Positions 2,969-61,775 of a stretch of DNA of 64,000 nt are shown piece by piece. The translations under genes and the position numbers were made by a program. The stretch is from IMG/VR virus record IMGVR_UViG_3300033146_000946, positions 32,001 to 96,000 of that record. One strand, given 5' to 3'. The DNA comes from a virus. A model generated the notes under the pieces. That model ran no database searches and had not been told where the DNA came from. It was given only the letters and a program-made list of their open reading frames with translations. Numbering within the stretch: position 1 is the stretch's first letter; the number at the start of each line of letters is the position of its first letter.

Positions 2969-3505
2969 ATGAATTTAACAAGACAAACCAAGTTATATAA
3001 ATCTACTTTTGATGATAAAGAAGTAATATATCGAACTTTAAATATAACTGAAATCAATGTTATTAATAATATATCTAATACTTATTATAAATATGATGTA
3101 GCATATGATCTAGCAGTAATTAATAAAGATGATGAAATCAATTATTTAATTAAACAACAAATTGGAAAAGATATTATTGAATCTTCAGCTTTATCTTTAT
3201 CTGACGATATGATATTATCTTTAACTGTTGATGGATTTAGAGAATCAGTTAAAAATGATTTTACTTTAACTCTAATTCCACAAATAATGAATGTATTAAA
3301 TGTTAATTTAGAATATCTACTATCTTTAACAATTGATGATTTAATTGAATTAACTGCTTTATGTGAAATTATGACTAATAAAAAAATATTTAAAGATATA
3401 GATATGCCAAAAGAAGATGTTGCAATTAAAAATGATAATCCACAATTTTTTCCAGAAGATGGAAAATCATTACAAGATAAAATGAAAGAACTAGAAGGTT
3501 TTTAA
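2969..3505 (+). CDS. Second tail assembly chaperone-like protein (paralogue of 2436-2738)
   Basis: DDKEVIYRTLNITE resembles SDLEIIYKPLSRND. AAGGAG RBS. TAATG overlap with the next gene. Confidence 0.6.
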   Translation: MNLTRQTKLYKSTFDDKEVIYRTLNITEINVINNISNTYYKYDVAYDLAVINKDDEINYLIKQQIGKDIIESSALSLSDDMILSLTVDGFRESVKNDFTLTLIPQIMNVLNVNLEYLLSLTIDDLIELTALCEIMTNKKIFKDIDMPKEDVAIKNDNPQFFPEDGKSLQDKMKELEGF

Positions 3506-6500: not shown

Positions 6501-9500
6501 TATTGGTGGATTTGAATATGATAATTTCAGATATGGTACTGGTATGTCTGGTTCATTTAAATATCTTGCTAATACAGCTGGTAAAGTAGCAGCAGCAGCT
6601 TTTGCATATAAAGCTATTGATGCTGCAGTTGCATCAGCTCCAGTATTTGATCAAACTGGATTACAAGATGGTATAACAGGATTTTTAGCTGATAATGTAG
6701 CAACTACACATTTAATAGCATCTAAAGCATTAAATTTTACAGGTGTTGCAGGAGCAGGAAGGTATCTTGAAGGGTTAATGCCAGGATTTACATCATCTGC
6801 ACCAGGAGCATTGATTGGTGGTGCTCTTAGAATGGCTGGTGGACCAGGAGCTATGATTGGTGGTGCAATACATGGTGCTATTTGGAATCGAATGTTATCA
6901 GCATATATGCCAGATTTTACTAAAACATATGAACAATTACAAAAAGAATATTCAGGTGAAGAAGAAGTAGCTATTGTAGAAGGTAAAGGATGGTTATTAG
7001 GTACTACACCATTCCAAGGTAATAAAATAGTTGGTTATAAACCAAATTGGTATGTTGAAGCAAAATCAAGATGGAAAGCATCAGATACATTATATGGTTC
7101 TGAATTTAGAAAATTAATACATGAACCATTACCTGGAATAGGTGCTAATATTGGTGATATAATAGATCCATATTATATGGAACGAAAACATTTCTTCGAT
7201 AGGCCATATCCTGTTACTGGAGGATTTTTAGATGAAGTTCCAGTATTTGGTCCATTAATAGATGCTACGTTAGGAAAAATATTTAAACCTAAAAAATTAA
7301 TGCATCAGAAATTTTTAAATGGTGATTCATCAATTGAACATTCTGAAGTTACAGCTATGCCAGTTATACCAATGTCAGAACAATCAGTACATATGCGTAG
7401 TGCTTCACCAATGAAAACAACTAGTCGACATATTAGATCTAATTTTATGGGAGCATGGGTTTATCCAGGTGATCATGCTTCATCAGCACAAATGATAGCT
7501 GATGATTATATGGCAGGATTTGAAAATATGATGGGTTTAGTTGGTTTTGCTGGTGGTGTTGGTAGAACTAATTTAGTAGAACATGAACGTGTAGTTCCAA
7601 CATTAGAAACTGCTGGTAGAATGGCATCTATGACTAGAAGTTATAATGATATGGCATTGGGAGGAATAGGTACTTTATCTGAAGCAATGAGACGTTTTGT
7701 AGGTAAACCAGACCATAGAAAAGTCGGTGTTAATCCAATTCCAAATATGCTTCCAAACTTTCTACCAGGTAGATTTTTAACTGGTGATCCATATGAAAAA
7801 ATAATGAAAGGTGAATTAAGATTACCTGGTACTGCTTATGAAAGAACACATGATATTAATTATGCTATGCCAGGTCGTGCTTCAATGTTCGGTGGTAATT
7901 TAAAAGATATCGTTGCATATTTTACTGGACATAAATCACCATTATTAAAAGAAGAACATGATATATTGGAATATGGTACACATGCTCACGAAGCTATTCA
8001 AAATTGGCTTAAAGCTGAAAATATATTAATATCTGCTGAAAATTTAGTATATGATACAAGAAATAATGTGTCTGGTCATATTGATGGTGTAATTCGAGAT
8101 GGTACAGGTGGTGGTGGTAGAAGAGCTCTTGAAATAAAAACTATATCAGCTAAAGGTTTAAAGAAATTATCAGGACCAAAAAATCAACACGTTGGACAGT
8201 TAAATTTTTATCTTCATGAAATGAAGATGAAAAAAGGTACAATATTATATGTTAATAGAGATAATCCAGCTGAGTTTAAAGTATATGAAATTAATTATAA
8301 TCGAGATAGATATACAAAAGATTTACAAAAAATACATCAAGCTAGAAAAATAGCGTCTGGTATGATAGCACAATCTAAAACGGGTATATCTAAAGGTTTT
8401 AGTTATTCTTGGACAGATAGATTAAATATATTAGCTGACGTTGCGCCAGCATCAAAAGAATTCAAAGAAGCAAAGTGGATAGTTGAACAACAGATAAAAA
8501 ATGGAATGATGGATGAACGTGGAATGAACAAATATAGAAAAGCGTTAAAACATCGACAAGCTACTTTGAGAACTTATGAATTATATCCTACTAGATTTAG
8601 AGGACAAATATTATCACCTGATGCTGAATATAATAGACAAAATGAAAATTATAATATAAAAGCAGGAGCAGAATATAGTTTACCAGAAAGAATAGTTGGA
8701 GCAGTTTGGGAAGAATTTTTAAATACAAATACATTTTTAACTAATAAGTTTTTTGCATTTAAAGATCCATTAGAACATTATTCAGAATATCAAGTATACG
8801 GAAAAGAATATACACCATGGACTGATCCTTATGGTTCATTTGTAAAACCAAGAATAGATAGAGTATTAGGATCAACTGATCCTTTTAAAGGAGCAATAGC
8901 AGGTTCTATTGATGGAGCATATTTATTTGGTGGTAGTCCAATGGCAGCAGTTGGAGCATTTGTAGGTGCTGCTGTTGGTGGTGTTAATGGAATCATGAAA
9001 AGACAACAAAGATGGCTACCTGGAAATATTAAAACTGAAAGACAAATTAATGATTATTTTGATACGTTAGAATATTATAAAAATGAAAGAATGGCAACTT
9101 TGAGTTATGGTATGGAATATGATAGATATAAAAATGCAGCTAATGCTACATTCCATAGTTTAATACAAAATGAAAGTACGGATTATACTAATATATATAG
9201 ATCAGCTTATACGTCAGAAAAACCATATCTATCTGCCTGGTTAAATGAAACTAATCCTGAACGACAAGAAGAAATTTTAAAAATTGTTCCTGAACGATTA
9301 GGAAATGTGTTAGTTAGTCATTGGCAAAAAGAAGGATCAAAAGTTAATACTGAAGATCATATTGATAAAATGTCAGCAGGTTTATTACAAAAACATAATC
9401 CAGAATATGATATGAGAATGTTAGATCCAATGTTACGAACAGAAGATATTAAATTAAAAGCTATTAATAATGCTGGATTAAATGCTCATGATTTTGGATT

Positions 9501-9786
9501 AGGTTGGGCTCCACAATTATTAAGAGCACAAGATGCGATGGATAGAATGCCAGATCCAAATATTAATCAAATTAATTTTAATGAAAATAATGCAGATATG
9601 ATGGATCCAGGTACAGTAAAAGGAGCAATAATGAATATGTTACATTCGATGGGATTAAAAGGTAGAGTTACAGTATTTATAAATAATCATGTAGATGGTG
9701 GATCAAATAAAGCAACTATAACATTACAGCATAATAGAGTGCAAGAAATTCGTGATGCTGTTGATTTTAGAGAGAGGTATATGTAA
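3505..9786 (+). CDS. Giant tape-measure/ejection-type virion protein with embedded PD-(D/E)XK (Cas4/RecB-like) nuclease domain
   Basis: Follows the chaperones. Has Gly/Ala-rich hydrophobic segments (GALIGG..GAMIGGAIHG; AAVGAFVGAAVGG). Nuclease motifs GTHAH, GHIDG, LEIKT and QLNFY at about 7975-8211. Confidence 0.75.
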   Translation: MSHYDPYQDNNDSYYNPQSNVNNKESVVHSIGSAIGETAKSLVGQLIVHTVVKSVGKLAGRGIANAQRSRATMRLKQKNLSSSQRSMYQRLSKAETFTDVLSARSKTFDRVRTNAWRQKSKNILEKRENVYNRLKTRNPIGAEAYKVKSAFKNSDTFMAVAMHNVGESILEGSIIGYAYDAATGQLGHMGVRDDLSTWNLPGHAVNYAKYMVKNAVNFGVMGNLGNIKRFGQAGAANVGKNFLKHNKGFEDAVLGFASKVSNVRYKGAMKHGSDTDYKAQAFQHEINDSLLKKVKDNVGAALSTYTDTIAPMMHESLHKPFQRKPTKTPQPTATQSAVKFQDKVKHGLDQVKNSFEHKRNERANRLSKDVDKGGFAIADVLSDMGARSNNQSVLTQHGNSKQAIDEMLMNQKSSRGFLAQMFGLQQTSLKDTLTKDKIADIAHGISKFTDTKEEMLIRQLGNVKVGNTFFKKGKFNVDMNYMNPLNVVKRGMANILQSNAKMLYKLPMVGKSLSLGAITMSDTILGTEYNAFSFNNTGTGFGFVVGTKGGPKQIDDLLREPGILKQGSNTSGVNVHMVNDKLYAIDGATITKLDSYNVAIKETSPASKSLSEMKKHDMEEYLYQNAKNTVPTSKSEAIAAYANNIKKQRDGLGFFGKLSAAVSWDKLSSSNAMQGLKEIFNMKIMPNGQVHSVKQQLYDQMVGSFYGKDPIFNKQEMMSVGRTMLESTEHHLANVINRPHVIKQLAERSSGFMNKNNLGWMWDDTEFVQLLREGRAPNGVIDKDFYKTFLSDDESKALYHTVIQNPRRAKKHITRDRVGARPDLDALTQLRTKFAMNGLGKVEGVDRMLSGADFLHRQGLISHSEATAMKLHGKLNTMFAKSKTYFGELDPEIVDLTEMQKLFKGKKDGVIIKQNELLDYVMQDEMRKPSLVYSKARLADTLYRNPDAPMFGLARDTTQAIGISYKSDSDKNMAMGLKVLNVGANRVSHLVSDTFNAVGIGGFEYDNFRYGTGMSGSFKYLANTAGKVAAAAFAYKAIDAAVASAPVFDQTGLQDGITGFLADNVATTHLIASKALNFTGVAGAGRYLEGLMPGFTSSAPGALIGGALRMAGGPGAMIGGAIHGAIWNRMLSAYMPDFTKTYEQLQKEYSGEEEVAIVEGKGWLLGTTPFQGNKIVGYKPNWYVEAKSRWKASDTLYGSEFRKLIHEPLPGIGANIGDIIDPYYMERKHFFDRPYPVTGGFLDEVPVFGPLIDATLGKIFKPKKLMHQKFLNGDSSIEHSEVTAMPVIPMSEQSVHMRSASPMKTTSRHIRSNFMGAWVYPGDHASSAQMIADDYMAGFENMMGLVGFAGGVGRTNLVEHERVVPTLETAGRMASMTRSYNDMALGGIGTLSEAMRRFVGKPDHRKVGVNPIPNMLPNFLPGRFLTGDPYEKIMKGELRLPGTAYERTHDINYAMPGRASMFGGNLKDIVAYFTGHKSPLLKEEHDILEYGTHAHEAIQNWLKAENILISAENLVYDTRNNVSGHIDGVIRDGTGGGGRRALEIKTISAKGLKKLSGPKNQHVGQLNFYLHEMKMKKGTILYVNRDNPAEFKVYEINYNRDRYTKDLQKIHQARKIASGMIAQSKTGISKGFSYSWTDRLNILADVAPASKEFKEAKWIVEQQIKNGMMDERGMNKYRKALKHRQATLRTYELYPTRFRGQILSPDAEYNRQNENYNIKAGAEYSLPERIVGAVWEEFLNTNTFLTNKFFAFKDPLEHYSEYQVYGKEYTPWTDPYGSFVKPRIDRVLGSTDPFKGAIAGSIDGAYLFGGSPMAAVGAFVGAAVGGVNGIMKRQQRWLPGNIKTERQINDYFDTLEYYKNERMATLSYGMEYDRYKNAANATFHSLIQNESTDYTNIYRSAYTSEKPYLSAWLNETNPERQEEILKIVPERLGNVLVSHWQKEGSKVNTEDHIDKMSAGLLQKHNPEYDMRMLDPMLRTEDIKLKAINNAGLNAHDFGLGWAPQLLRAQDAMDRMPDPNINQINFNENNADMMDPGTVKGAIMNMLHSMGLKGRVTVFINNHVDGGSNKATITLQHNRVQEIRDAVDFRERYM

Positions 9787-12700
9787 TGCCAATAACTGAA
9801 ATTTTAGGTGAAGAAATTGAAAATGATAATGATAGAGTAAACTGGTTTGGTAGAGTAATGGTTGGTGGTATGTCTGTTTTAGGACTTGTTGCTATTGCTA
9901 ATAAGATTGGTGGTCCTACAGGTAAAGCTATAAAATTATCAGTTGGTGATCAATTAGAAGAAGAAGTAATAGATGCTGTTAATAAATATGGAAGACAAGC
10001 TGATAAATTAAAATCACCAAGTAGTTTAAAACATAAATTACCAATTAATGGAAAATTAGAAGTAGTTGGAAAATTACCATCAGAACAAGCAATTTCTAAA
10101 TTTGAACGTGTAGTAAATTCTCAAGATAAAATAAACAAAATGATGGAGACACCAACATCATTATATAATAAAATACATGAACTTGAGCGTTCTATTTCTA
10201 CTGTTATTAATGGTGTTGAAAATGGTGATCCTATGATGAAACAGATTAACGCATTACATGGAATAGTTTCAGCTAAAGTTAGGACAAAAGATGCTAAATC
10301 TGATGCTAATAATTATTTATTAATGGCAACCAAAATAAATGCAATGAGAGATTATAGTACTACTGATGTTAAAGGTGAATTAGCACAATATTTAGATGAA
10401 GATATCTGGTATGATAATTTCTTAACTGAAATGAAACCATCTGATATGATTAAATGGAATCAAAATAATGAAACTTTAATAAAAAGTGATACATCATATG
10501 CTAAAAAATATTATAAACAATTACAAAATTTAGAAAAAGAAATTTTAGCTAATAAAATTGCTAGTTCTGCTAATAGTAATAAAGCATTAGAGCTAACACA
10601 TAATAAATTATATGTAAAAGATGCTTTTATGCCTGTTGGTGATTTATTAAATGATGCAGCAGGTTATGTAATAAATGTTACTAATAAATCTATCGAATTA
10701 TTTTCATCTGATTTTAGTAATAATAAAATGAGTGTTGGAGAAATAAAACAAGTAATCGATAAATCTATATCTAAAAACGTTGGATTAAAATCACAATACG
10801 GATCAGAATTAAGTGATATAGCTCATTTATTAGATCAATTTAAAACTATGAGTAATGGTAAAATTACTAATGTTAAAATGACTTATAAAACCACAGAACA
10901 AAGAGGTGTTGAAAAAGCATATGTTGTAATTAATATAGATAGAAAATATGGAAATAATAATACTAGATCATTTTCTATGAATATACCATTAGTTGATAAA
11001 TTTAATATTGTACCAGATATAACTAATACATCACATTTTGGATATGGTGTTGCAGGTATAATAGAATCATTACCAGGAACAAATAAACCAGCTACAGCAA
11101 TAGATATATCTACTTATTATATGAGAACTGTTAAAGATATGTTAACTCAATCTATAATGAGTGAGGTATTATTTACTGATGAAGAATCATTTAATGATGT
11201 ACAAAAAAAATTAAGAAGACCATTATTAGCAATTCAAGATCAATTAAGTGCATTAAATGGTGAAGCTAGAGATATTTTTGCTACAGGAATGTATATACCA
11301 AAAACGCATTTAGATTTAATTGCTGATAAAACAGGTAGTAAAAAAAGACAATTAGCTGATGGTGCTAAAACAATAATAAATATGTTTAATGATAGTAAAA
11401 GAAATACTAATAATGATGTATCTATTGTTTTAGACTTAGAAACAATTCAATTATTAGGAAATGGTTCAGGAAGATATATGTCTGTAAGAAATACTACTTC
11501 AATTTGGTCTGTAGGTTTTTCTATTTTTAAAGGTAATGAATTAATAGATGGTGATCAGATTTCTTCTATGCATGCTTTAAAAGAGCATGATTTATTACGA
11601 GCATATGAAGTTGATAAAGTTGATAAAGGATATATAGCTAGGATGATTGATGAAAATCCTAATATCCGTAAATTTGCTAGATTTGCACAGAAAACAGTTG
11701 GCGGTTCAACTGGTGATGATTCAGTAAGTTTAGCTATAGCATTAAAAAAACATATAGAAATGGTACTAGATGAATCAAACGGATCATTATCTAAAGTAAC
11801 AACAATGCCAGGTATGGGAAATTTTTCAAGTTCAGTTGAATTTGCTCAATCTTTTGTTAAAATGTTGAAAGCTAAAATACGAGATTTACAAGATACTTTA
11901 CAACCAGGAGCAAAGATCACACTTGAAACTGCAAATGGTACTGATTTCGATATAAGATTATTAGAAACATTAACTGGTGATATGGGTTCTATAAGAGATA
12001 TGGTTGAATTTAAAGATATAACTAATGTAAGTAGAACTATGAAATTTGGTAAAAAAGGTATGTTAGGTGATCAGTTAATGCATATCGTTAACCAGTTAGC
12101 ATGGGATCAAGGATATGATAAAGAACATTTTAATGTAGAAGCTAATCCATTAGAAGCATTAAAACAATTACAAAAGAATGGATTAATGAAAACTAATAAA
12201 AATGGTGGTGATATATTAAAATTTGTTGGCGGTAAAATAAAAGGTAATATGGGTTTACATAATTCAGCATTATTAGATACTGTAATGACAAAAGCTGCAG
12301 TTATATTAGCTGAGAATGTAATTGCTAAAGATACTAGTCATGTAGATAAAGCATATGAAATTTTAAATTTATTAGAAAAATATCAAAGAAAAGATTATGA
12401 AGCAACTATTGCTGATTATATGGAATCATCTTTAGGAGTAATAAATGGTAAACAAGTAACTAAATCTGGTATTAGTATGCAACATCGTGTTGATAATTAT
12501 TATACACATTTTAACGTAGCTGATGTTATGCCATTATTAGCAAATAATCCAGTATCTAAACAAGCAAATCAATATTTAAGACATGGTTGGTTTCAAAAAA
12601 ATGTTAAAGCTGCATATTGGCGATATGGAAAAATGATTACATCTCCAATAGAAGAAGTAGCTACAGATTTAGCATATAGAACTACAGGATTTGATAAAAA

Positions 12701-15700
12701 TAGATTTGCTAATAAAGTTATATTAAATACAGCATATACAATTGGTGGATATGGTATGCAATCTGGATATAGTGCTATACCTAAATTTATAGATGATGAA
12801 TTTGATCAAATGTTATATAATCAAAAACGAGTTCAATTTAATTTTGCTGATACTGATTTTCCAGATGCATCTATGTCTAATACTATTAGAGAAGTATATG
12901 ATAAAGCTATGGTTAGAGCTCGTAAAATGATGAGTGATAAAGGATTAGGTCCAGTTAAAAGTAAGCATAAAATATCCAAAAGTGTATTAGAAGAAGCATT
13001 TAGAATAGAATTAGGAAATATACAAAATAAAGAATCTTTGATATTAGATCCAGAAAACCCAATACATCAAAATATTATGTTTGGTGATGGTAAATTAAAT
13101 ATTAAACAAAATACTCCAGGAAAATTAGTAGGTATTGAATTAGGTGGTGATATTAATAATGATAAACCAGCTTCAATGTTATTATTATTTGATTATAAAT
13201 CTTCTTTAAATTTACAGATAGATCATTTACCAGATAATAAATCAGTTGTTACTAAATTACAACATGTAGATCAAGAAGTACTTAGAACTATGGGTAGAAA
13301 ATATACACATGGATTAATTGAATCACAAGTAGATATGCGTACAATAGAAAAAGGATATACTGGAGAATTACAAAGAAAAGCATTATTAAAAATAATAGGA
13401 CATGTTAATAAAATAGGTCATATTGGGTCATCAGATGCATCTAAGAGAGTATGGACTGATTCAGAAAAATTTGCATCTGATAAAATAATGAAAAAAGTAA
13501 TATCATTGTTTAAAGAAAAAGCTGCAACAGATGGTATGCATGTTGGATCTATTGATGAAGAAAATGGTTTTAAATCATTTATATTTGGTGCATTAAAACC
13601 AGGAACAGTAGATGTTAAAGAACAAATGAATATGTTATCTACTATTAAAATGTCGGATATTATGGATATATTTGGTGAAGCAGGTGGTGATCTCATACAT
13701 GATTATAAAAGTTTAAAAGAATATTATGGTTTATTTAGTAATGATGGTATAATTGAAACTGCTCATAATATCGATTCAAAATTAGTAGCTAAAGGCTTTT
13801 CAGAAAAAGGTACAAAAGAAGGAGATTTATTAGAACAAATGTTAAATATGGATGATACTATAAAAGAAAATAAAGCATTAATAAATCCATTTCAAGCAGC
13901 TGCTAATAAATATAATAGAAAGCATGGTGATAGTGCATTACAAAAAAAATTACAAGGATACATTGATGCTAATGATTTACAATCTGCTGATAATTTAATT
14001 AAGAAATTAAAAATTGGAAAATTATTTCAAGCAGTAGGTGATATGAGTGCAGTTAATAGAAATATTATGGCTGGTAAAACTGGAGATGAAAGGTTTGATA
14101 AATTAATGGGTATTGTTGTTCCTACTATTCATCACTTTAGTGATTCTCAATCTATGAAACAAAAACAAGTTAATAAAACTATTAAATTTCGAGCTAATTA
14201 TTTTGATACAATTTTTCATGAAAATTATTTACCAGAAAGAGTAAAACAAGTATTAGCATCAAGTCAAGGTTGGAAAGCTGACAAAGCAGGTTTAGATTTA
14301 GTTAAAACATCTCGTGCAGTTATAGACATGTTTAAAAATAATAATCTTAGTAAATTAATGACTAATTATAGTTTAAATCAACAACAAATGTTAGATATCA
14401 TTGGTAATCCACTAACTAATAAACAAATAGATAGAGCATTAGAAAGATTAAGTTTAGCTGATGGTAAAAGTTCAAAGAGAAAAGCTGCTATAATTAGTGA
14501 AGTAATAGATAGTATTAAAAAAACAGGAACAACTATATCATTAGAAGAAGAAGAAGAAATAAGATCTAGAAGTATTAATTATTTTAAAGATAAATTGATT
14601 GCAACTAAAAACAGACCTTCTTCTTTATCAGCTACCGAAGCATTACATGTAATATCTTTAAGTGAAGATCAAAATGCTAAAGTAGTTGGTTTAAAATTTT
14701 ATGAATATAAAGAACTTGATAAAGATACAGGAAAATTAGTATCTAAAGTTATATCAAAAGAAACTAGAGCTAAATTAATTAAAAAAGGTATTAGTAAAGA
14801 TCAATTCAAATCATGGGGTGGACAAATTAGATTTGATTTAGAAGATATGATATCTAGATTGAATGAAAAAGAATCTGATCCATTTAATCTACGTCAATTT
14901 ATTGATCATTTTTCACATCTTAAAAATACACCTGGTCGTGCTGATAATAGAATCTTTAATGTCAAAGAAGTTAATGGTAGAAAAATAATTGAAATGAACG
15001 CATTAGTTATGCCAATGTTTAGTGATATTAGAAATGTATTCAATCAAATTGGTGATGTTGAAGGTTATGGTGTTGCTACAAAAGAATTTAAATTAATGCA
15101 AGAAGTCGCTAATGGTTTAAAAGATTATGCTAATTCCTTTATTGATGGTAAAGGTAATAATTCTATGAATAATAGAACTGGTGACGACTTAGCTTTTAAC
15201 TATTTCCAAATGTTAGGTGGAATTATGAATTTTGGAAAAGATTCACAATTATTTGATGCTGTTAAAAAATTCCATTTAGTAGGTAGTAGACATACATATG
15301 GTGTAAGTGATCAACATGTATTATTAGCACAATATACCTTAAAAGGAATAGATGGTAAAAGTACTGGTTCAAAACAAAGAATGTTAGATTTTTTCAAAAA
15401 AAATAATATGGATGCTTCACAACAAAGTGCATTTATGGATCAGATAAGAAGTGTAGCTTTATCTGATGGACATACAGCATTAGTAAATGCTGAAGATTTT
15501 TTTGGTGATAATATAAAAGTAAATACAGGTAATGGTAAAAGTATGACTTTTGGTCAAATGTTATCTGATGCAAAAGCTAATGATAAACATTTATATAATG
15601 AATTATTAAAAATTCAAAATGGTAGAGCAACTATGCCAGGTTTCACTGGTAGATATCCTATCCCATCAGCTGGAGAACTTGGATTATCTATGGTTAATAT

Positions 15701-17291
15701 TTTAGGTCTTAGTAGAGAAGTGATGGATTTTTTAGGTATGAGTACTGATATGACATATTTTAATTCTGTTATAGCTGAAGCTCGTAAAGCTGATACTGAT
15801 GGTGATGAAACTGAGTTAATGCAATTAGGATATAGAACAATCGAACATTTAAATGAAATGAGAGCAGCAACAAAAGAATCACATGCTAGAACTGTAGGTA
15901 GTCATGGACTTCAATATCTTATTAATGAATATAATAGAAGTGGTGCATTAATAGGTAAGGAAATGAAAGGTGGTGTAGAATATTATAAAGTTGGTAAATT
16001 AGCACCTAATGGTTCAATGATTGAAGAATTAGTTACAAAAGATGAATATTTTAATAAATTTGATTCAGGTATATCTAAAAATTTTAAAAAAATTCTTAGT
16101 CAAGACTGGATAGAAGGAACTAATATACATAATATAGCAAATGGTGTAGAACGTCATTTAGCAACAGGTGAAATTGGTACAGCTGCTCAATCATTAATTG
16201 GTTTAATTTCTAATACGATGAGTGAAAGAGTAAAAGATTTACATCGTTTAAATAAAATACTTCCTGATAATGTTCCAACTGATATAAACTTTTTGGATTC
16301 AATTCAATCAATAAAATTTGGTATGGCTAATATGCATCAAACTGCAATTGCTATGGGTAAACATAATACGTTTGAAAAAGCAATAAATTTAGCACATGCT
16401 ATTGGTTTCTGGGAATCAAAAGTTAATAATAAACAAGCTTCACGAGAACAAGTTCAAGCAGCTGAAAAAGCATGGATGCATAATTTTTATGATGATTGGG
16501 ATACAAAAAAATTAAATCCATATTGGGAAAAAAATGACGAAACAAGAGCATTTGTTCAAAAACAACAAGACTTATTTAATACTTTTAAAACTGCTATGCC
16601 ATTTATAGATCAAGTTTATAAAAAAGATCCACAAATAGGAAGATACTTAAAAAATGAAAGCGATTTATCTAGTGGTAAAATGGGAACAGATATTACTGCT
16701 GCATTATGGAATGAATCTATGGATCATGGTATTTATGATGATGCTATATCTCATATTAATTCATCAACTCGAGAAGCAACAGCAGAATTAATTCAACATG
16801 TAATAGATAAACAAAGTGGTGATTTTAAATATGATAATGGACCTACAAAACGAAGTAAAGCTTTTAATCATTTTTATACTAATAATAATATACATGTTAA
16901 AAATGCAATGATGCATGGTGGTAAATTTGCAGCTTTTGGTATGTTAGCAGTTGCAGCATTAAATATGTTTAAACCTATGGCTGGTACTGGAATTGATGCA
17001 CCAGGTGTACATAATAATTTTACTGCTAGTGAATTACAATTAGATAGAAGAATAGCTATAGATCAAGTTGATGCATCTTTTAGTAAAGAAGCATTTGCTT
17101 ATATGAATGATCAAGATTCAACTGCTAGAGAAAAAAAATCATTATATGGTGCTACACAATTAGCAATATATGATAATTTAATTAGACCAGAACCTACTCA
17201 TAAACAATTTAGAAGTAATCTTAATATACAACAGATAAATAGAATGACTTATATTGGTCCATTTGGTAATTCTAATTTTGATAGTAGGTAA
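9786..17291 (+). CDS. Giant virion protein: DEDDh (DnaQ-like) exonuclease fused to putative single-chain two-barrel RNA polymerase
   Basis: Exonuclease motifs LDLET (11430), NGTDFD (11934) and HNSALLD (12258). Beta'-like GRYP (15648) followed by ARKADTDGDE (15780-15809). Weaker beta-like motifs at 12519-14200. Confidence 0.72.
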   Translation: MPITEILGEEIENDNDRVNWFGRVMVGGMSVLGLVAIANKIGGPTGKAIKLSVGDQLEEEVIDAVNKYGRQADKLKSPSSLKHKLPINGKLEVVGKLPSEQAISKFERVVNSQDKINKMMETPTSLYNKIHELERSISTVINGVENGDPMMKQINALHGIVSAKVRTKDAKSDANNYLLMATKINAMRDYSTTDVKGELAQYLDEDIWYDNFLTEMKPSDMIKWNQNNETLIKSDTSYAKKYYKQLQNLEKEILANKIASSANSNKALELTHNKLYVKDAFMPVGDLLNDAAGYVINVTNKSIELFSSDFSNNKMSVGEIKQVIDKSISKNVGLKSQYGSELSDIAHLLDQFKTMSNGKITNVKMTYKTTEQRGVEKAYVVINIDRKYGNNNTRSFSMNIPLVDKFNIVPDITNTSHFGYGVAGIIESLPGTNKPATAIDISTYYMRTVKDMLTQSIMSEVLFTDEESFNDVQKKLRRPLLAIQDQLSALNGEARDIFATGMYIPKTHLDLIADKTGSKKRQLADGAKTIINMFNDSKRNTNNDVSIVLDLETIQLLGNGSGRYMSVRNTTSIWSVGFSIFKGNELIDGDQISSMHALKEHDLLRAYEVDKVDKGYIARMIDENPNIRKFARFAQKTVGGSTGDDSVSLAIALKKHIEMVLDESNGSLSKVTTMPGMGNFSSSVEFAQSFVKMLKAKIRDLQDTLQPGAKITLETANGTDFDIRLLETLTGDMGSIRDMVEFKDITNVSRTMKFGKKGMLGDQLMHIVNQLAWDQGYDKEHFNVEANPLEALKQLQKNGLMKTNKNGGDILKFVGGKIKGNMGLHNSALLDTVMTKAAVILAENVIAKDTSHVDKAYEILNLLEKYQRKDYEATIADYMESSLGVINGKQVTKSGISMQHRVDNYYTHFNVADVMPLLANNPVSKQANQYLRHGWFQKNVKAAYWRYGKMITSPIEEVATDLAYRTTGFDKNRFANKVILNTAYTIGGYGMQSGYSAIPKFIDDEFDQMLYNQKRVQFNFADTDFPDASMSNTIREVYDKAMVRARKMMSDKGLGPVKSKHKISKSVLEEAFRIELGNIQNKESLILDPENPIHQNIMFGDGKLNIKQNTPGKLVGIELGGDINNDKPASMLLLFDYKSSLNLQIDHLPDNKSVVTKLQHVDQEVLRTMGRKYTHGLIESQVDMRTIEKGYTGELQRKALLKIIGHVNKIGHIGSSDASKRVWTDSEKFASDKIMKKVISLFKEKAATDGMHVGSIDEENGFKSFIFGALKPGTVDVKEQMNMLSTIKMSDIMDIFGEAGGDLIHDYKSLKEYYGLFSNDGIIETAHNIDSKLVAKGFSEKGTKEGDLLEQMLNMDDTIKENKALINPFQAAANKYNRKHGDSALQKKLQGYIDANDLQSADNLIKKLKIGKLFQAVGDMSAVNRNIMAGKTGDERFDKLMGIVVPTIHHFSDSQSMKQKQVNKTIKFRANYFDTIFHENYLPERVKQVLASSQGWKADKAGLDLVKTSRAVIDMFKNNNLSKLMTNYSLNQQQMLDIIGNPLTNKQIDRALERLSLADGKSSKRKAAIISEVIDSIKKTGTTISLEEEEEIRSRSINYFKDKLIATKNRPSSLSATEALHVISLSEDQNAKVVGLKFYEYKELDKDTGKLVSKVISKETRAKLIKKGISKDQFKSWGGQIRFDLEDMISRLNEKESDPFNLRQFIDHFSHLKNTPGRADNRIFNVKEVNGRKIIEMNALVMPMFSDIRNVFNQIGDVEGYGVATKEFKLMQEVANGLKDYANSFIDGKGNNSMNNRTGDDLAFNYFQMLGGIMNFGKDSQLFDAVKKFHLVGSRHTYGVSDQHVLLAQYTLKGIDGKSTGSKQRMLDFFKKNNMDASQQSAFMDQIRSVALSDGHTALVNAEDFFGDNIKVNTGNGKSMTFGQMLSDAKANDKHLYNELLKIQNGRATMPGFTGRYPIPSAGELGLSMVNILGLSREVMDFLGMSTDMTYFNSVIAEARKADTDGDETELMQLGYRTIEHLNEMRAATKESHARTVGSHGLQYLINEYNRSGALIGKEMKGGVEYYKVGKLAPNGSMIEELVTKDEYFNKFDSGISKNFKKILSQDWIEGTNIHNIANGVERHLATGEIGTAAQSLIGLISNTMSERVKDLHRLNKILPDNVPTDINFLDSIQSIKFGMANMHQTAIAMGKHNTFEKAINLAHAIGFWESKVNNKQASREQVQAAEKAWMHNFYDDWDTKKLNPYWEKNDETRAFVQKQQDLFNTFKTAMPFIDQVYKKDPQIGRYLKNESDLSSGKMGTDITAALWNESMDHGIYDDAISHINSSTREATAELIQHVIDKQSGDFKYDNGPTKRSKAFNHFYTNNNIHVKNAMMHGGKFAAFGMLAVAALNMFKPMAGTGIDAPGVHNNFTASELQLDRRIAIDQVDASFSKEAFAYMNDQDSTAREKKSLYGATQLAIYDNLIRPEPTHKQFRSNLNIQQINRMTYIGPFGNSNFDSR

Positions 17292-17517: not shown

Positions 17518-20500
17518 ATGGCATATATAAACGCTAAAAATGTAGAACGAGTATATCATCCAAGTCAATTAACAACATTATTATATAGTATGATTGATAC
17601 CCTTAAAACAGATATTAAATCTAGTTTTAAGATTCCAGGTACCGTATCTACTCGTCATAAATATGATACCGTTTTATCATATGGTAAATATACATCATCC
17701 TTAGAAAAAGTAAAATATAAAGTATCATTTTTACCAGGACATTTAAATTTAAATACATCTAAAGTATCATTTTTACCAGGACATTTAAATTTAAATACAT
17801 CTAAAGCACACACATACGCTTTAGATGTTATCAGTAAATTATATACTGACACATTTAAATTAAAAGTAAGTGATTTCGTATATCAAAATAATCCAGATGT
17901 TGGAACTTTATTAGAATCAAAAGGACGTGGTTTACAACCAGGAGATATTTTATTAGCTAGAGCTTATAGTTCTACTAATAATTCAGAATATATAGATTAT
18001 TTAACAATAGTAATAGAAGCAAATGATGGAAATTTAGTTACTTTTCCAGAATTATATAAAAATAATGCTGATTTATTTAATATTAAATTTATTAGACAAT
18101 ATACTATTACAAAACCAAGTAAAGAATTAGCTACATTAGCTGGAAATACAGGTCATTTATTTTATCAATATAAAAATACATCTAAATTATCCGCTGAAAT
18201 TATTAAATCTACTAGATTAAATGTTGATGGTTATTTACAAATTGGTGATTTAAAATTCTTAGTAGCACCACAACAATTATCTTTTAGTACACAAAATGGT
18301 TATCAATATTTTCCTACTATAAGAACCAATGGTAATCCGAATATTCCAACTGCTCAAGAAGCAAAACAAGTTAATATAACTTTAATATTTCCAAATGTTG
18401 ATTCAATTAATAATCAATTATTACCATTATTTGCTATGTTTAAACGAACACCATTTGTTAATGTTTATAATAAAGATATAAGTATGTTTTTTAGTGAATT
18501 AAAAGATGAAGAGGATTTTGTATCTTTTGCATTAGAAGATTTATATATACAAACAATTAAAGGATTTCCAAATACTCTACAAGCTAATATTACAATATTA
18601 CCATTTCAAAAAGAATCTTTTGGTTCTGCTTTTAAAGCTTTAAAAACATTTGATGATGTAAAATATAAACAAGTTGTTGAAGATTTTAGAACAAGTAGAA
18701 TAGATAATATAGTTGAAAATATTCAAAATAGATTAAATGATAATAAAGAAATTTATGCAACTAATATTTTTAGAAAAGTAAAAGGACCATATTCAAAATA
18801 TGGTTTTAGATTAACTAGTGATTTCACATTAAGTGAACCATTTAGAGCATATTATCAAGGCCTATTAGCATATCGAACTGTAGTAGAAGATGAATTAGGA
18901 AATATTGTTAAGAAATCTAATAGAGAACCTATATATATTGAAGCATTTAGACCAAAAAAAGCAGCCAATCTAATACATAAATATGTAGCTGAACATAATC
19001 AAAATAGACCTATTGTAATGAATTATAGTTATATTGATGAATCAGTTCGAGAATTTAGAAAAAAGATGAATGATCAACAACAAGAAGCTAGACGTAAAGT
19101 AGCTAAACAAACTAGAAGTGCTAGAGAAATGTTTGAAGCAATTGGTGACACATCATTTAATGAATCTTTAAATACAGTAATTCATACTAGACAAGATTTT
19201 TTTGATTCTATATTAGCTACTTATCAATTTTCATCTTTTGATAATTTCTTTTCAAGAGTATTAGTACAATATGGAGTTGAAGTTCATTCTGATAATGATA
19301 TTGAAAAGATATCTGGTTATCTGGATTTATTATTTAAATATTTAAAATTTGGAGTAAAAGTTGATAATGTATCTTGGAATGATTTAGAAGGTGGATTTAA
19401 TTTAGTATTTGGAAATGCTTTTAAATTAGTTAAAAGTAAATATTCATTTAAAGGTGAAGCTAGGGATCAAATAGATTTATTAACAGGATTTACTTTAATT
19501 GATACTAAAACTAATAAAGAAGTATCTACTAAAGAATTTACAAATAATTTATTAACAAAAATTCAAAAATTATATGTTAATATTAAAGATGAAAAAACTA
19601 AATCTGTTATTGCTGCATTTTGGGATAGTATATTTAATACTATTTCTAGTGGTGGAGATGTCGTAGATTTAAATACCTTTATGTTTAAAAATTTAGATGG
19701 AATATTAAGATCAAGTATTACAATAGATAATGTTAATGATATAATAGAAGGTTGGTCTATTTCATATTCTAATAAACTTATACCAATGCAATTATTAGGA
19801 TTTAAATATCCATTTTATCAACATATTGGATCAAATAATATTAATGTTCAATTATCTATTACTTCTTTACAAAATGGACGTAAAGTTGGATTAAAAGATG
19901 AATTTTCAATATTAAATGATAGATTACAACGAACAGCTAAAATAATATTAATGAATATGCCAGAATTATTAAAATTGTATAATTATACAGTATCATTAGA
20001 CACAGTACCACTTGGTAATATTTTTTCTATTTTTGGTTTAAAACAATTAGTATTTAATAATTCTAATGTTAGTAATATTCCAGGTAAACCAAACGCTTGG
20101 GCTATTACTGTTAATTTTACTCAAGATTTATTAACAATACGAGAATATCAATCAATTGATCAAGTGCCTAATACTTTTGGATTTGCTCCTGAAATTGCAA
20201 ATAAATTAATACGATCTAGAATTATAACTGAAGATAATGATCCTAGTGGTTATGCAAAAGGTGATGTTGTAGTTTATGATTTACAATTAAAAAAGACCCT
20301 GAAAGATAGTGATATAGATTCTGTAGATCCTTCTAAATTTGATCAATCGATTTTATCAGTTCTAATGCCAAAAGAAGATTATACAAAATCAGCTGTATCA
20401 GCTGCTGTAGAAGCACAAGATAAAATTGATAAAAAACGATTAGGACCTATTCAACATGGAGATGAAACAACATATATATCAGAAATAAATAATTTATTTA

Positions 20501-23500
20501 TATACTACTTTGCCTTATTAAAACAAAAAACATTAGCTAAAAAAAATGATATAGATTTATTTAAAGATGATGTAATAAAAGTAACACAAAGTGATGGTAC
20601 TGTTGTAGAACAAAAATTTAATTTTAAAAGTAATGATCAAATTTTAGAAGCATTTGAATTAGTTCCTAATAAAATTGAATCAAAAAAATTAAAAAAAGTT
20701 TTTGATAATAGTGATTTTTTTAGAGATTCATATAAAGGTCTATTAGTTGAAATAGATACATTATATGAGACCAGTGCTGGTATAATGTTAAAAGCATATG
20801 AAGATATTGAAGTAGATCCTCATATTTTTATTGCTGAAGCAATGATGTCTGTTGGTTTTTTTGGGGTAGTAGGTGCTGCATTATTAGGATCATTAGCAGT
20901 TATGACTGGTGGTGTAGCTTTATTAGCTGGTGGTATGGTTATAGGAATGGTTGGTATTACATTAGATCAAAATAAAAAAGAATCAATAAAAGCTACTATT
21001 AGAAAACACCATTCTTTATTAAAAAATATTTTAGATAATATAACATCAAAATATATTAGAGATATATCTAGAATAATTTTACGAGATCCACCAATAATTA
21101 AAGCTTTATATAGTGAAGAATTATATACTGATGTTATGACTATAATCAGAACTGCAGGTATAAATTGTTATAAAGATTTTGATATTAGATTAGATTCATT
21201 AAATGTTTTAAATGGTGAAACATTACAATTTAGTCCAGAATTTTATCTATTTAATAAATATGATCTTAATACTAAAAAAGATGAATTTATTAAAGATCAA
21301 TTGAAAAATAAAATATCTGCAGCTGAAATACAAAGTAATATGATTTTGAAAGAAACAACCGAAGTATTAGATATGTTAAGAAATATTAATGATGAAGTAT
21401 TTAAAGATGATGCTACATTTTTTACTCAAATTAAAACTGATTTAAATTATATAAAAAATAATTCTACATCAAGTGATCCTAATAGTTATGAAATGGATTA
21501 TGATGAATTATTTAAAAAAATAAAAAATGTTTATGGTAAAATTATAGAAGAATATTCAGGTGTATCTAAATATAAAATGATTAATGGTAAAAAAGTTGTA
21601 ACGTCAACTACTAATGGTATTGATATAGATTTATTAAAATTTAATTTGTTAAATACCGCTCGAATGAAACGAGCAATTGAATTAAAATTAATACAAAATA
21701 CTATTAATGATTCATTAAATGCAGATAATCCAGATGATAAGACAACAGATAAATCTAATAAGAAAAATACTTTAGACGCTTTAACTGAAATGGGTATAGC
21801 ATTAGAATCTATGGATAAATATAAAAATTATATTAAAAAATATTTTGAACAATATGTATCTACTGTTGAAATACAATGGAATCCAGATTTATATAAAGGT
21901 GAACTACAAAGTGAATCTTTTAAAACTGCAAAAGAATTAAAAAAAGAAAAAGAAAAAAGAATAAAAGAAGATAAAGAAAAATTATATAATCCAGATGCTA
22001 AACATGGCTCTATTACTAATTTTGAAATTAGTATTTATACTAGATTATATCAATTATATCTTTTAGATTCAGCAATTAAAGATGCAGTTGCTAATGAAAA
22101 AATACCATCTGATAAATATGATTTGTCAGATATTCCAGAATTACAATTACTCAAATGGTATGGTTTTAGATCAGCAGAACAATCAGTTAAAGATATAGAA
22201 TTCCTAGAAAAACTATATCATAGTGATCTTTCACAACAAGCAAAAGGTATGAGAAAATTATTTCCTACTCAAAAAATTTATTTAGTTGAAGAAGATAGAC
22301 ATACATTTAAAAATTTAGATGATTATTATTCTTATGATGCTATTCAATCGATTGATATAGTTTCTAATAAATATTCTGCTGGTAAAACTGCTGTATTGAG
22401 ATTAGGAAATATATATAATAATATAACTGATAAAATAAGTTTGATGACAGAGCGATTAACAATAGAAGAACGTAGTCAATTAAATACAGATAATGTGTTT
22501 ATGGGAACGTTAGATGTTAAACCTGGTACTAAAATTATTATTAAACAAGGTTACGATGCTAATGATAAATTTTTACCTGTTGTATTTATTGGTAAAATAG
22601 TAGATATGAGACCAGGTCCTGTAACAGAAATTATAGCACAAAGTTATGGTACACAATTAAATCATTATATTGAAAAATTAAATTTTGGATTTAAATCTTC
22701 AGCAAATGAACATGGGGATGTAGCTATAACTTTATTAGATCAAATGTTTGGATCTGATGGTCTAGGTAAGATAGATCCTATGAATATAAGAAGAAATTAT
22801 TTTACAGGAAAAAATTTATCAAAAATGAGAGAAAATTCATTTTCTAAGTTTTTAATATCTAATATTTTATCAAGAGTAAATATAGGATTATTTGCAAATG
22901 ATAATCCTCGCGATGATAATATCTTTTTACCAATGAGAATATTAGATTCTATTATGGATCATGTAACATTTGACTGGAGAATATATCAACAAACTATATG
23001 GCAAGCATTACAAGAATTAGCTCTATATCATAAAAATACTTTTCCAATGGTAAAATTATATAATTATGATGGTTTATCTAATTTAGATGAAATACGTGAA
23101 ACTGTTATTATAGGTAATAAAGCTGGATATTATAAATATACTGATGCATTTGGTTTGAGTTCTATAAATTATGCTGCTATTAAAAATGCTCTTGAAGAAT
23201 GGAATGATATTAAAGATGATGTTGTAGATGTATTAAAAACTATTACAAATTTTAGAGCAGTTAATGATACATTAGTAAAATTTTATGCTCATATAGCATT
23301 TCCAATGACTAATTATAAAGGTTCAAAAGTTAAATTTAAAACATTAGTTGATTCTAATTATATTAAAACATTTGATGTACCTGGTGATAATAAAAATGAT
23401 CCACAACATGTTGGAATAGAACATACAACTAAATCTAAAAAATTATCAAAAATATTAAATAATAAATATTTAATATTAATGTTAGTTAAAAAATATTTTG

Positions 23501-51892: not shown

Positions 51893-52246
51893 ATGAATAT
51901 AGTAGAAATGGAAAATAGAATTCTTGAATTAGAAACTGGATTAAGAAAAGTGCAAAATCAAGTAAATTCATTAGAACGTGAATTAGGAAAATATGCAACA
52001 CAAGGTCATTTAAAAACCTCAGAAGCTAATACAAAAAATCTTATTAATAAAAATAGTATGATGATAAATAATTTGGAACAGAGATTGGAAACAATCTCCA
52101 TTCCAGATGATACAAGATATTATTTAGAAGCAACTGAGATAGAAGATTTTAGAAGTAATTATAAACGATTGATAGCTTTAATGGCTGATGCAGAAAAGAT
52201 GTATCAAGCGTTAATTACTTATGTTAGTCAGTTTGAGCTAAAGTAA
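51893..52246 (+). CDS. Small coiled-coil protein
   Basis: Heptad pattern MENRILELETGLRKVQNQVNSLE. Last gene of the + strand operon. Confidence 0.55.
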   Translation: MNIVEMENRILELETGLRKVQNQVNSLERELGKYATQGHLKTSEANTKNLINKNSMMINNLEQRLETISIPDDTRYYLEATEIEDFRSNYKRLIALMADAEKMYQALITYVSQFELK

Positions 52247-53243
52247 TACCACTATCTGCCATACATTTATCTTTAAAATTACAATAAGCACATTCCATAT
52301 CACCGATTGGTTCGTGCTTTTTATAATGTTTATTATATTTGATTTTAGATATACGACCACAATGGTATTGTAAATCTACATCTGAGTTATTATATATTAA
52401 TTTATATGATGGATCTGGTAAATGTTGTTCTCTAACATAATTATAAACACTATCAAATTTTGCTATTATATCACGTAATGAAAATCTCAATTCAGCTAAT
52501 CTAGATTGATCTTTAGTAGCAGTTGTAGAATGATGTAATAACTCATCAAACGAATCTACTTGTTGTAAATGAATTGTTTCAAATTCATTACCTGCTTCAT
52601 CTACTGGAGTTATAATAGCATATTCTTCATCATCTAAATCAACCTTAAAATACATAAGACTACCTGTACTTCTATCAATATATAAAAGATAAACTTCTTC
52701 TATATTTCTTTCTTTTCCATCACTACATAATACTGGTCCTTGTAAAGAACGTTTTTTATAATGCATAGCTTGAATTAAATTTTTTGGCGCAGGTAATGGT
52801 ATCTTTTTATTAGTACCAAATACAGAATCTACTTTATATGAAGATATAGATTTGATTTCAATTCCAATATTTTTATTATTTTCATTGATTAATAAATCCA
52901 TTTTACCAGAAGTTATAACTTTATGAATAGTATCTTCAGAAATATATTCCATTCGAACTTGTTCATCAACATATAAATTGTTTTTCTTAAATTCATTTAT
53001 GATACTATCTTCATACATAATACCTGCATCACAAATATGTCGTACACGTACTGACATTGGATTTGTATATTCTTGTCCTAGAAATTTATAAAATAAAGAT
53101 CTTTGACATTCTCCTATTGTGATACCAGCACCTACTTCAGCAATGCCTTCACTTGCCCAAATAACATTCTCTTCACGATATAAAGAACCTTTATCTGCGC
53201 TTACTTCATCTAATTTTTTCCCAAATAGTTTTTTGATAAACAT
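52224..53243 (-). CDS. Stand-alone Cas4-like PD-(D/E)XK exonuclease with Fe-S cysteines
   Basis: GECQRSLFY, SGKMDLL, IEIKS, QAMHY and C-terminal CAYCNFKDKC. No cas1 or CRISPR array nearby. Confidence 0.85.
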   Translation of the reverse strand: MFIKKLFGKKLDEVSADKGSLYREENVIWASEGIAEVGAGITIGECQRSLFYKFLGQEYTNPMSVRVRHICDAGIMYEDSIINEFKKNNLYVDEQVRMEYISEDTIHKVITSGKMDLLINENNKNIGIEIKSISSYKVDSVFGTNKKIPLPAPKNLIQAMHYKKRSLQGPVLCSDGKERNIEEVYLLYIDRSTGSLMYFKVDLDDEEYAIITPVDEAGNEFETIHLQQVDSFDELLHHSTTATKDQSRLAELRFSLRDIIAKFDSVYNYVREQHLPDPSYKLIYNNSDVDLQYHCGRISKIKYNKHYKKHEPIGDMECAYCNFKDKCMADSGITLAQTD

Positions 53244-60250: not shown

Positions 60251-60265
60251 AAAAAGGATTGAATT

Positions 60266-60610
60266 ATGTCAGATAAAAAAATAGTTACTGAAACTAAAAT
60301 GGAAACAGTTAAAACAGAATTAGAAAGAATGCATCCAGAAGAAGGAGATATTTTTATATTAAATGTTAATACTGATGATCCCGATATAATATATTCAGAA
60401 GAAATTGCTGAAAGTGTAGAACAATTATCAGAAATATTAAAAGATCTAACTGGTATAGATATTCCTATTTTAGTATTTGGAACAGAACTAACTATGTCAT
60501 TAATTAAAAAAGATGATCTTGAAAAATTATTAGATAGTATTGAAATAATTGATGATATAGATGAAGAATTAGATAACGACGTAGAAAATATTAAAGATTT
60601 ATTTAATTAA
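60266..60610 (+). CDS. Highly acidic hypothetical protein
   Basis: 114 aa, D/E-rich, AAGGA RBS. Confidence 0.65.
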   Translation: MSDKKIVTETKMETVKTELERMHPEEGDIFILNVNTDDPDIIYSEEIAESVEQLSEILKDLTGIDIPILVFGTELTMSLIKKDDLEKLLDSIEIIDDIDEELDNDVENIKDLFN

Positions 60611-60622
60611 AGGATAATTAAA

Positions 60623-61774: not shown

Positions 61775-61775
61775 A

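Follow-up and report, generated by a model that had tools for sequence, protein, structure and literature searches.

A predicted PD-(D/E)XK nuclease domain of the RecB/Cas4 clade within a giant virion protein of 0305phi8-36-like phages

Results

A nuclease domain lies within the first of three giant genes

We analyzed a 64,000-nucleotide stretch of viral DNA (positions 32,001 to 96,000 of IMG/VR record IMGVR_UViG_3300033146_000946; the whole stretch is referred to here as the window), with particular attention to a nuclease-like domain inside one of its giant virion protein genes. The first 25 kb of the window contain three giant genes that lie back to back and encode proteins of 2,093, 2,501, and 2,559 amino acids (aa), with small genes upstream of them. 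The product of the first giant gene, P0001, carries the domain between two short motifs, GELRLPG and DRLNILADVAP (Table 1). The window is AT-rich (about 25% GC), and its parent record is 147 kb long and 64% complete according to CheckV; no terminal repeats were found in this 147-kb, 64%-complete fragment. A homologue search of 5.8 billion proteins returned 86 homologues of P0001, and in 55 of these a regular expression finds both flank motifs 198 to 263 residues apart. The conservation counts given below and in Table 1 refer to these 55 sequences.

Table 1. Features of the window discussed in the text (aa numbering is that of P0001; ORF, open reading frame)
Feature	Position	Strand	Basis
178-aa gene, tail-chaperone position, overlapping the start of the giant gene	2969..3505	+	In 0305phi8-36, WH1, and ME3, chaperonin genes occupy the same position ahead of the gp145-like genes
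Host gene, 2,093-aa giant virion protein P0001	3505..9786	+	ORF list; translation; tblastn to gp145, WH1 gp096, and MTATph1 CDS0026; conserved synteny
N-terminal flank motif GELRLPG, aa 1436-1442	7810..7830	+	G, E, R, P, G invariant in 55 sequences; present in homologues with and without the insert
Predicted RecB/Cas4/lambda-exo-type PD-(D/E)XK domain, aa ~1455-1625	7867..8379	+	PHROG 1706; AF2 model; fold matches; Pfam in homologues
RASMFGG	7876-7896	+	In frame in ORF 3505-9786
Motif I, GTHAHEAIQ, H1495	7975..8001	+	H in 54/55; on model helix aa 1482-1504
Motif II, SGHIDG, catalytic D1527	8071..8088	+	D in 55/55; aligns with the GRAD aspartate of Sso Cas4
Motif III, LEIKT, E1543 and K1545	8128..8142	+	E/D in 55/55, K in 55/55; aligns with IEIKT of 4ic1
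Motif IV, QLNFY, Q1565 and Y1569	8197..8211	+	Q and Y in 55/55
YVNRDNP	8248-8268	+	In frame in ORF 3505-9786
C-terminal flank motif DRLNILADVAP, aa 1638-1648	8416..8448	+	D, L, D, P invariant
Second giant, 2,501 aa, Cys-free, position of the assigned tape measure gp146	9786..17291	+	Synteny; 0 Cys
Third giant, 2,559 aa, baseplate-hub position	17518..25197	+	PHROG 20474, E 1.4e-37
Canonical Cas4-like nuclease, 339 aa	52224..53243	-	PHROG 1706, E 3.9e-13; C46 and C-terminal CxxCx5C

The Cas4-like family PHROG 1706 matches P0001 over aa 1483 to 1616 with an E value of 1.5e-17, and the exonuclease families PHROG 2506, 1990, and 434 match as well. When a domain profile built from 41 homologues is compared with PDB, it matches the Sso Cas4 structure 4ic1 (E 5e-5) with the D, ExK, and QxxxY motifs in register. 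An AlphaFold2 (AF2) model of aa 1380 to 1700, computed with 48 homologues, has a mean pLDDT of 80.5 and an alpha-beta-beta-beta-alpha-beta core, in which helix 1482-1504 is followed by strands 1508-1517, 1522-1531, and 1539-1547, helix 1560-1572, and strands 1577-1584 and 1591-1597. The structures that Foldseek finds with this model are Cas4, lambda exonuclease, MGME1, LHK-Exo, Dna2, RecE, Exo5, and the AdnAB/AddAB nuclease domains, with a best E value of 1e-6, and the VIA-align Z values are 14.3 for Sso Cas4 (4ic1), 13.8 for LHK-Exo, and 13.6 for lambda exonuclease. A fold search of BFVD gave A7KUR9_2 as the top match (E 8e-19), followed by free-standing phage Cas4-like nucleases; we infer that A7KUR9_2 is part of gp145 of Bacillus phage 0305phi8-36. 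Since Pfam gives no match to P0001 itself, YqaJ included, the family assignment rests on the PHROGs, the PDB profile match, and the fold. Pfam PDDEXK_1 does score over its cutoff in the diverged homologue P0084 (24.6 bits versus 22) and in 3 of 41 family members.

Pairwise identities among the 55 sequences bearing the catalytic set fall to about 22 to 26%. The four-cysteine Fe-S cluster that characterizes Cas4 proper has no counterpart here, because P0001 does not have a single cysteine in its 2,093 aa, and there is no CRISPR context, since no cas gene is found among the annotated window ORFs and the host gene lies in a tail operon. Based on the family matches, the profile alignment, and the model, we conclude that aa ~1455 to 1625 are an intact PD-(D/E)XK domain of the RecB/Cas4/lambda-exonuclease clade, which is predicted to be a catalytically competent, Mg-dependent DNA exonuclease, and that the domain is a distinct, giant-embedded subfamily of the Cas4/RecB clade. 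These results bear out the preliminary description of the locus, which had reported an intact nuclease with a complete Cas4/RecB-type motif set and no Fe-S cysteines: the motifs that it quoted are all in frame in ORF 3505-9786 on the plus strand, its residue numbers are exact, and neither of the outcomes that it had set against its own claim was observed, as D, E/D, and K are each present in 55 of 55 sequences and the predicted fold is a nuclease fold.

The same description had noted a resemblance between the insert and the protein encoded at 52224-53243, a gene of the replication module that adjoins an HNH gene and a primase-helicase gene and whose product has the motifs SGKMD, IEIKS, and QAMHY. 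This resemblance holds at the level of the superfamily and no closer. BLASTP found no similarity between the two, and hhalign aligns them weakly but in register (probability 24%, E 8e-4); the free-standing protein also has four cysteines. From these comparisons, the insert and the 52224-53243 protein are best described as members of one superfamily and not as recent paralogues. A recent duplication of 52224-53243 into the tail gene is ruled out by the same BLASTP and hhalign results and by the fact that the insert predates the split from the Bacillus phages.

The domain is an old insert that is missing from some relatives

In P0001, 202 residues separate GELRLPG (aa 1436) from DRLNILADVAP (aa 1638). 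In gp145 of phage 0305phi8-36, which has a homologous and longer insert, the distance is 263 residues, while insert-less homologues from phages MTATph1, WH1, KLEB27-3, and ME3 and the metagenomic homologues P0086 to P0088 have only 14 to 19 residues between the flank motifs. The near-adjacency of the two motifs in related phages, which the preliminary description had put forward, is therefore correct, and so is the suggestion of a domain insertion, since the insert is present in 55 homologues and missing from others.

A tree of the flanks requires at least three changes of insert state, with the insert-less WH1/KLEB27-3 and MTATph1 lineages nested among insert-bearing ones, and a tree of the insert alone reproduces these three major clades together with their subclades. 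Sequences within the clade of the window share 61% identity in the insert and 56% and 52% in the two flanks; the corresponding values between clades are 29% (insert) and 30% and 25% (flanks). Because the insert and flank trees agree and the divergence rates are equal, the data favor a single ancient gain with clean losses over a recent recruitment. The simplest history that can be read from these sequences would be one ancient insertion between GE.RLPG and DR..ILADVAP, followed by vertical descent under purifying selection and by clean deletion in some lineages, with precise loss of the insert at least twice.

The wider distribution of the domain was examined with a profile search of 1.84 billion representatives, which found 170 proteins (50%-identity clusters) at E<1e-30. 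Nearly all of the best 150 profile matches are giants of 1.8 to 4.9 thousand aa in which the domain begins or lies at about two-thirds of the length, and the close free-standing relatives found in this search consist only of contig-end fragments and one distant Exo5/PDDEXK_1 protein (E 2e-8). Among IMG/VR gp145-type loci, 8 of 80 have the insert, and most of the others belong to one large insert-less clade. The earlier proposal that this phage itself recruited the nuclease is not compatible with an insert that is ancient, common to 0305phi8-36 and at least 170 clusters, and co-diverging with its host protein. We are highly confident that the domain is an active nuclease, ancient and vertically inherited.

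Inteins have invaded the same region

About 25 homologues (among P0016 to P0079) contain typical inteins of ~350 to 450 aa (C...HN, then S/T/C), with up to three per protein; the copy in the window has none. At least 10 intein sites are used, which in P0001 numbering lie after aa 1227, 1237, 1391, 1430, 1442, 1459, 1563, 1646, 1729, and ~1739. Two of these are inside the nuclease domain, RA/SM at 1459/1460 and a site at 1563/1564, one residue before the invariant Q of QLNFY, so that in homologues P0048 and P0059 an intein stands directly before SQLNFY. One site falls in each of the flank motifs, GELRLPG/T (G1442/T1443, 5 homologues) and ADV/AP. Inteins characteristically sit at the most constrained sites of important proteins, and their placement here independently supports a working enzyme. 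The insert in the window is not itself an intein, as it has no Cys, no HN-S/T/C junction, and no Hint or splicing motifs around the domain. In phage KLEB27-3 (5100-12253), a Cys-rich HNH/AP2-like ORF, gp032, interrupts the gp145-type gene and divides it into gp031 and gp033. The interruption is just before (GE)MRLPG, a hot spot used elsewhere by inteins; gp032 is probably an intron or free-standing homing-endonuclease insertion.

Such heavy invasion (inteins at 10 or more sites and an HNH-type ORF that splits the KLEB27-3 gene), together with the precise loss of the insert at least twice, is what would be expected if the domain were a selfish element or relic, the remnant of a mobile homing-type nuclease that landed in a mobile-element hot spot and confers no benefit on the phage. 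However, the domain in the window has no Hint or splicing motifs nearby, it co-diverges with its host at the same rate with all catalytic residues kept in 55 sequences, and the domain itself is a target of inteins, in the way that conserved and essential sites are. A homing endonuclease, in contrast, decays once it has become fixed, and enzymes of the RecB/Cas4 type are not known to be sequence-specific homing enzymes. We consider it very improbable that the domain is a selfish or relic insert.

The host protein is an orthologue of gp145, and its gene adjoins the one in the position of the assigned tape measure

A tblastn search with P0001 against 50,697 phage records matched eight records, seven of them distinct (0305phi8-36 is present under two accessions); the phages matched include Bacillus phages 0305phi8-36, WH1, Edson, and KLEB27-3, Moorella phage MTATph1, and Acinetobacter phage ME3. 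The gene order is the same in the five phages inspected (all but Edson): sheath, tube, chaperone-type genes, the gp145-like gene, a second giant gene (gp146-like), and the baseplate hub. The orthologue of P0001 in 0305phi8-36 is gp145 (ABS83703.1), which is annotated in its record as a virion structural protein, by mass spectrometry. The tape measure of that phage has been assigned to gp146, the product of the next gene after gp145 (PMC2147016). Because the orthologue gp145 precedes gp146, the assigned tape measure, we conclude that P0001 is a protein adjacent to the tape measure, in tape-measure position, and is probably not the tape measure itself. The preliminary description of P0001 as tape-measure-like is accurate with respect to position and likeness. 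A tape measure is expected to be encoded by one long gene, located between the tail chaperones and the hub, whose length varies with that of the tail; the P0001 gene does come directly after the chaperone-position genes, but two giants share this slot.

P0001 nonetheless has tape-measure-type traits, namely, hydrophobic Gly/Ala segments, a non-compact, low-confidence model of its N-terminal flank, and an orthologue found in the virion by mass spectrometry. The Gly/Ala-rich segments, located by hydropathy, are at aa 1030 to 1048 and aa 1804 to 1832. The conserved core that forms the N-terminal flank (aa 1120 to 1450) gave a poor AF2 model with a pLDDT of 55, too weak for a fold search, and Pfam scans of P0001 and 35 homologues found nothing for the conserved core and no LPD domain. 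Polyvalent proteins are recognized by LPD domains or by a metallopeptidase combined with multiple effector domains; for P0001, an Atlas feature search pointed weakly to LPD38 (score 0.93, with 156 features in common), which was not confirmed by Pfam. There is no Cys in P0001 (0/2,093) or in the neighboring giant (0/2,501), compared with about 0.1 to 1% Cys (roughly 0.5% overall) in most other window proteins. Similarly, 0 to 1 Cys per about 2,000 aa is the count in the gp145 homologues of the Bacillus, Moorella, and Acinetobacter phages and in nine metagenomic homologues that were sampled. The Cys-free composition, the Gly/Ala segments, and the poorly folding N-terminal flank would suit a protein that is kept in an extended form inside the tail and travels through it, and these same traits would explain why the type of nuclease found here is one that does without an Fe-S cluster.

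One explanation of a nuclease in such a place is that it acts within the particle or during assembly, either trimming or holding the genome end that enters the tail after head-tail joining or acting mainly as a clamp on DNA ends by which the genome is linked to the tape-measure complex. The gene belongs to a tail-assembly operon and directly follows chaperone-like genes, the family binds DNA ends, and the orthologue is a virion component, all of which are consistent with this explanation. However, the whole catalytic set is invariant over deep divergence, which points to chemistry and not to mere binding, and an active nuclease would have to be inhibited in the virion to be kept with packaged DNA. 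No precedent for an intra-virion nuclease of this kind is known to us, and we regard this explanation as improbable.

Phages without the insert tend to carry an SNase domain

SNase domains (PF00565) are present in the hub giants of WH1 (gp094, 25.9 bits), ME3 (ME3_37, 53.2 bits), and MTATph1 (CDS0032, 34.9 bits). The MTATph1 domain was found by a six-frame search at OR602862.1 38339-38626, although hmmscan did not list it; given this discrepancy between the two methods, we use the six-frame result. KLEB27-3 has a weak SNase match at the corresponding hub position, and a hub SNase is also present in one IMG/VR relative (the record of L040). An SNase domain in the BtI1 hub was reported by Hardies et al. 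(PMC2147016). WH1, ME3, MTATph1, and KLEB27-3 all lack the PD-(D/E)XK insert. In contrast, no hub SNase domain was found in 0305phi8-36 or in the window record, and SNase is absent both from the 2,559-aa giant in hub position and from the entire 147-kb record.

Across 50 IMG/VR records, SNase is present in 0 of 8 that bear the insert (three of the eight are 100% complete) versus 22 of 42 that lack it. When isolates and records that are at least 60% complete are considered, the counts are 0 of 7 versus 14 of 16 (Fisher p 1.5e-4, in a test that ignores kinship and for which there are about three versus four independent lineages). In the largest insert-less metagenomic clade, the SNase is a free-standing ORF of 135 to 137 aa far from the tail genes. 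The anticorrelation of insert and SNase is a lead that such phages may need some nuclease, supplied in different forms. A more general statement would be that 0305phi8-36-like jumbo phages always carry a nuclease and that the forms are interchangeable, one being a Cys-free RecB-type "pilot exonuclease" built into gp145 that would move through the tail together with the tape-measure complex and act at the entry pore before phage gene expression and the other an SNase in the hub or elsewhere. The pilot exonuclease would then represent a so far undescribed class of phage-delivered enzyme that either renders the leading genome end recombinogenic and proof against RecBCD/AddAB or destroys resident DNA; we consider this generalization doubtful.

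Downstream of ADVAP, several gp145-type proteins (0305phi8-36 gp145 at about aa 1380 to 1460, MTATph1 CDS0026, WH1 gp096, and P0084) have a weak SNase-like OB segment (V..V.D..TF...IRLAGV-like, ~15 bits). This segment apparently lacks the usual acidic catalytic residues and is absent from the window protein. It probably explains why P0084 bears the JGI name "endonuclease YncB."

The SNase pattern favors a destructive role of the domain, the main rival to the resection of phage genome ends that is considered in the Discussion. The nuclease would be delivered into the cell and attack the host chromosome at nicks, forks, or breaks, or plasmids, prophages, or co-infecting phage DNA, and by doing so would help to take over the host, to salvage nucleotides, or to keep competitors out at the entry channel. 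The inverse relationship with a non-specific SNase (0/7 versus 14/16) and the occurrence of SNase in the tail hub in four lineages suggest that "some nuclease" is selected, and it can be speculated that the products of three tandem glycosyltransferase genes in the window (described below) mark phage DNA as self. However, the close structural relatives of the domain are all end-dependent exonucleases, and an intact circular chromosome offers few ends. Pfam and PHROG searches found no partner endonuclease among the tail genes. Furthermore, the SNase of the largest insert-less clade is small, free-standing, and distant from the tail genes, so that it need not be equivalent to the insert, and the statistic ignores kinship. 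Taking both sides together, we judge the destructive role unlikely.

Neighboring genes

The one-base overlap between the giant genes 3505-9786 and 9786-17291 is the A shared within TAATG, and both products are rich in Gly, Ala, and Met. The 2,501-aa giant has no match in Pfam, PHROG, PDB sequences (phmmer), or the 50,697 phage records (tblastn), and family searches with the 178-aa product of the overlapping upstream gene likewise gave no match of its own. Upstream of the chaperone-position genes, window positions 34-2382 encode a 782-aa protein with a C-terminal NlpC/P60 (CHAP-like) peptidase domain (aa 643 to 729, E 1.5e-8), which is probably a virion-associated cell wall hydrolase. Three tandem glycosyltransferase-like genes (PHROG 2170/4356) lie at 58808-62891, right after the primase-helicase gene; DNA, the virion, and the envelope of the host are possible targets of modification by their products. 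A RecA-family recombinase (PF00154, 76 bits) is encoded in the same record outside the window (G000:C1:124476-125084, minus strand), and 0305phi8-36 encodes one too.

Discussion

The explanation that best accounts for the observations as a whole is that the nuclease is delivered via the tail and resects the end of the incoming phage genome, although we would put our confidence in this entire scheme a little below even. Its first part, that the nuclease is delivered with the virion and acts at entry, seems to us evenly balanced. The preliminary description had called the nuclease an injected effector; what is documented for the 0305phi8-36 orthologue is its membership of the virion. According to this scheme, the gp145-type protein would sit inside the tail beside the tape measure and, when infection begins, exit by way of the tail. 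A nuclease without cysteine, and hence without an Fe-S cluster or disulfide, could pass through unfolded and refold in the cell. At that moment, the main free DNA end would be the one with which the linear phage genome enters first, its leading end, and we favor it as the substrate because all of the structural relatives need a free DNA end. The proposal that the substrate is the phage's own genome end is tentative, and we think it rather less probable than delivery itself. The domain would then resect the leading end 5' to 3', leaving a 3' tail at which RecBCD/AddAB would enter poorly and on which phage RecA could act, and recombination-dependent circularization or replication could be primed in this way.

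Several observations weigh against delivery followed by end resection. Placement in the tail relies on gene order and composition, and the model of the conserved N-terminal flank is poor (pLDDT 55). For recombination, another exonuclease is already available to the phage, namely, the free-standing Cas4-like protein encoded at 52224-53243. Insert-less lineages carry SNase, which is non-specific and incapable of directed 5' resection, and if the insert and SNase are functional substitutes, then a destructive role fits better than end processing does. Finally, the existence of several viable isolates without the insert means that the domain is dispensable in some settings.

Phage-delivered proteins decide the first minutes of an infection, and few of them are known. 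At least 170 protein clusters (50% identity level), most of them from uncultured jumbo phages, contain the domain described here, and so does Bacillus phage 0305phi8-36, which can be cultured. Should the domain be ejected, it would be a new kind of entry-stage enzyme, and it would bear on how linear jumbo genomes survive RecBCD/AddAB, on how they start recombination-dependent replication, or on how the host is disarmed before transcription. The presence of the domain in 0305phi8-36 makes the idea accessible to experiment. The insert is also a clean example of a datable domain insertion with traceable losses, and the gp145-type family is an unusually rich natural collection of inteins in a structural protein, with at least 10 sites.

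Of the proteins with which P0001 can be compared, 0305phi8-36 gp145 is the closest, as an orthologue that occupies the same slot between the tail chaperonins and gp146, has the same flank motifs, is Cys-free, and carries a homologous PD-(D/E)XK insert with the motifs GTKIHE, GFFD, DIKT, and QQLNFY. The two proteins differ in that identity across the region is about 26%, the insert of gp145 measures 263 aa versus 202 aa in P0001 and includes an additional segment within the domain, and gp145 has the weak SNase-like OB segment after ADVAP that is missing from the window protein. Cas4 of Sulfolobus (SSO0001, 4ic1) is the best match in both sequence and fold (Z 14.3, rmsd 3.2 Å over 153 residues), but it is a free enzyme of ~200 aa, whereas the insert is embedded in a 2,093-aa structural protein and has neither Fe-S cysteines nor a CRISPR context. 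Lambda exonuclease, LHK-Exo, and RecE (YqaJ-type exonucleases) are phage enzymes that resect DNA ends for recombination. They have equivalent folds (Z 13.6 to 13.8 over 164 to 178 residues for lambda exonuclease and LHK-Exo) and, like the insert, no Fe-S cluster, but sequence identity with them is about 10%, and their synthesis takes place after infection, so that the virion does not bring them along.

That tail-internal or ejected proteins can harbor enzymatic modules is already known. Proteins delivered with the virion include the N4 RNA polymerase, T4 gp2 and Alt, the P1 Dar proteins, and the inner-body proteins of phiKZ, and large virion-internal proteins that bring catalytic modules into or through the envelope include the muralytic tape measures of mycobacteriophages and staphylococcal phages, T5 Pb2, T7 gp16, the N4 virion RNA polymerase, and P1 DarB. 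Unlike the insert of P0001, the modules known from such proteins are peptidoglycan hydrolases, polymerases, methylases, ADP-ribosyltransferases (ARTs), and similar enzymes. Polyvalent and pilot proteins have been described as large virion-internal carriers of catalytic modules (PMC5512222, PMC7824862), and the survey of polyvalent proteins makes no mention of a tape measure or of a Cas4 or RecB-type module (PMC5512222). In the searchable literature, we found no description of a nuclease in gp145-type or tape-measure-position proteins, gp145 included, and the domain in gp145-type giants is thus apparently undescribed so far. The nearest parallel within the same lineage and gene cluster is the SNase of the hub proteins (BtI1, WH1 gp094, ME3_37, and MTATph1 CDS0032), which is likewise a nuclease fused to a giant tail-internal protein. 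The hub SNase differs from the insert in being an OB-fold, Ca-dependent, non-specific enzyme, in having the hub as its carrier, and in being found in lineages without the PD-(D/E)XK insert.

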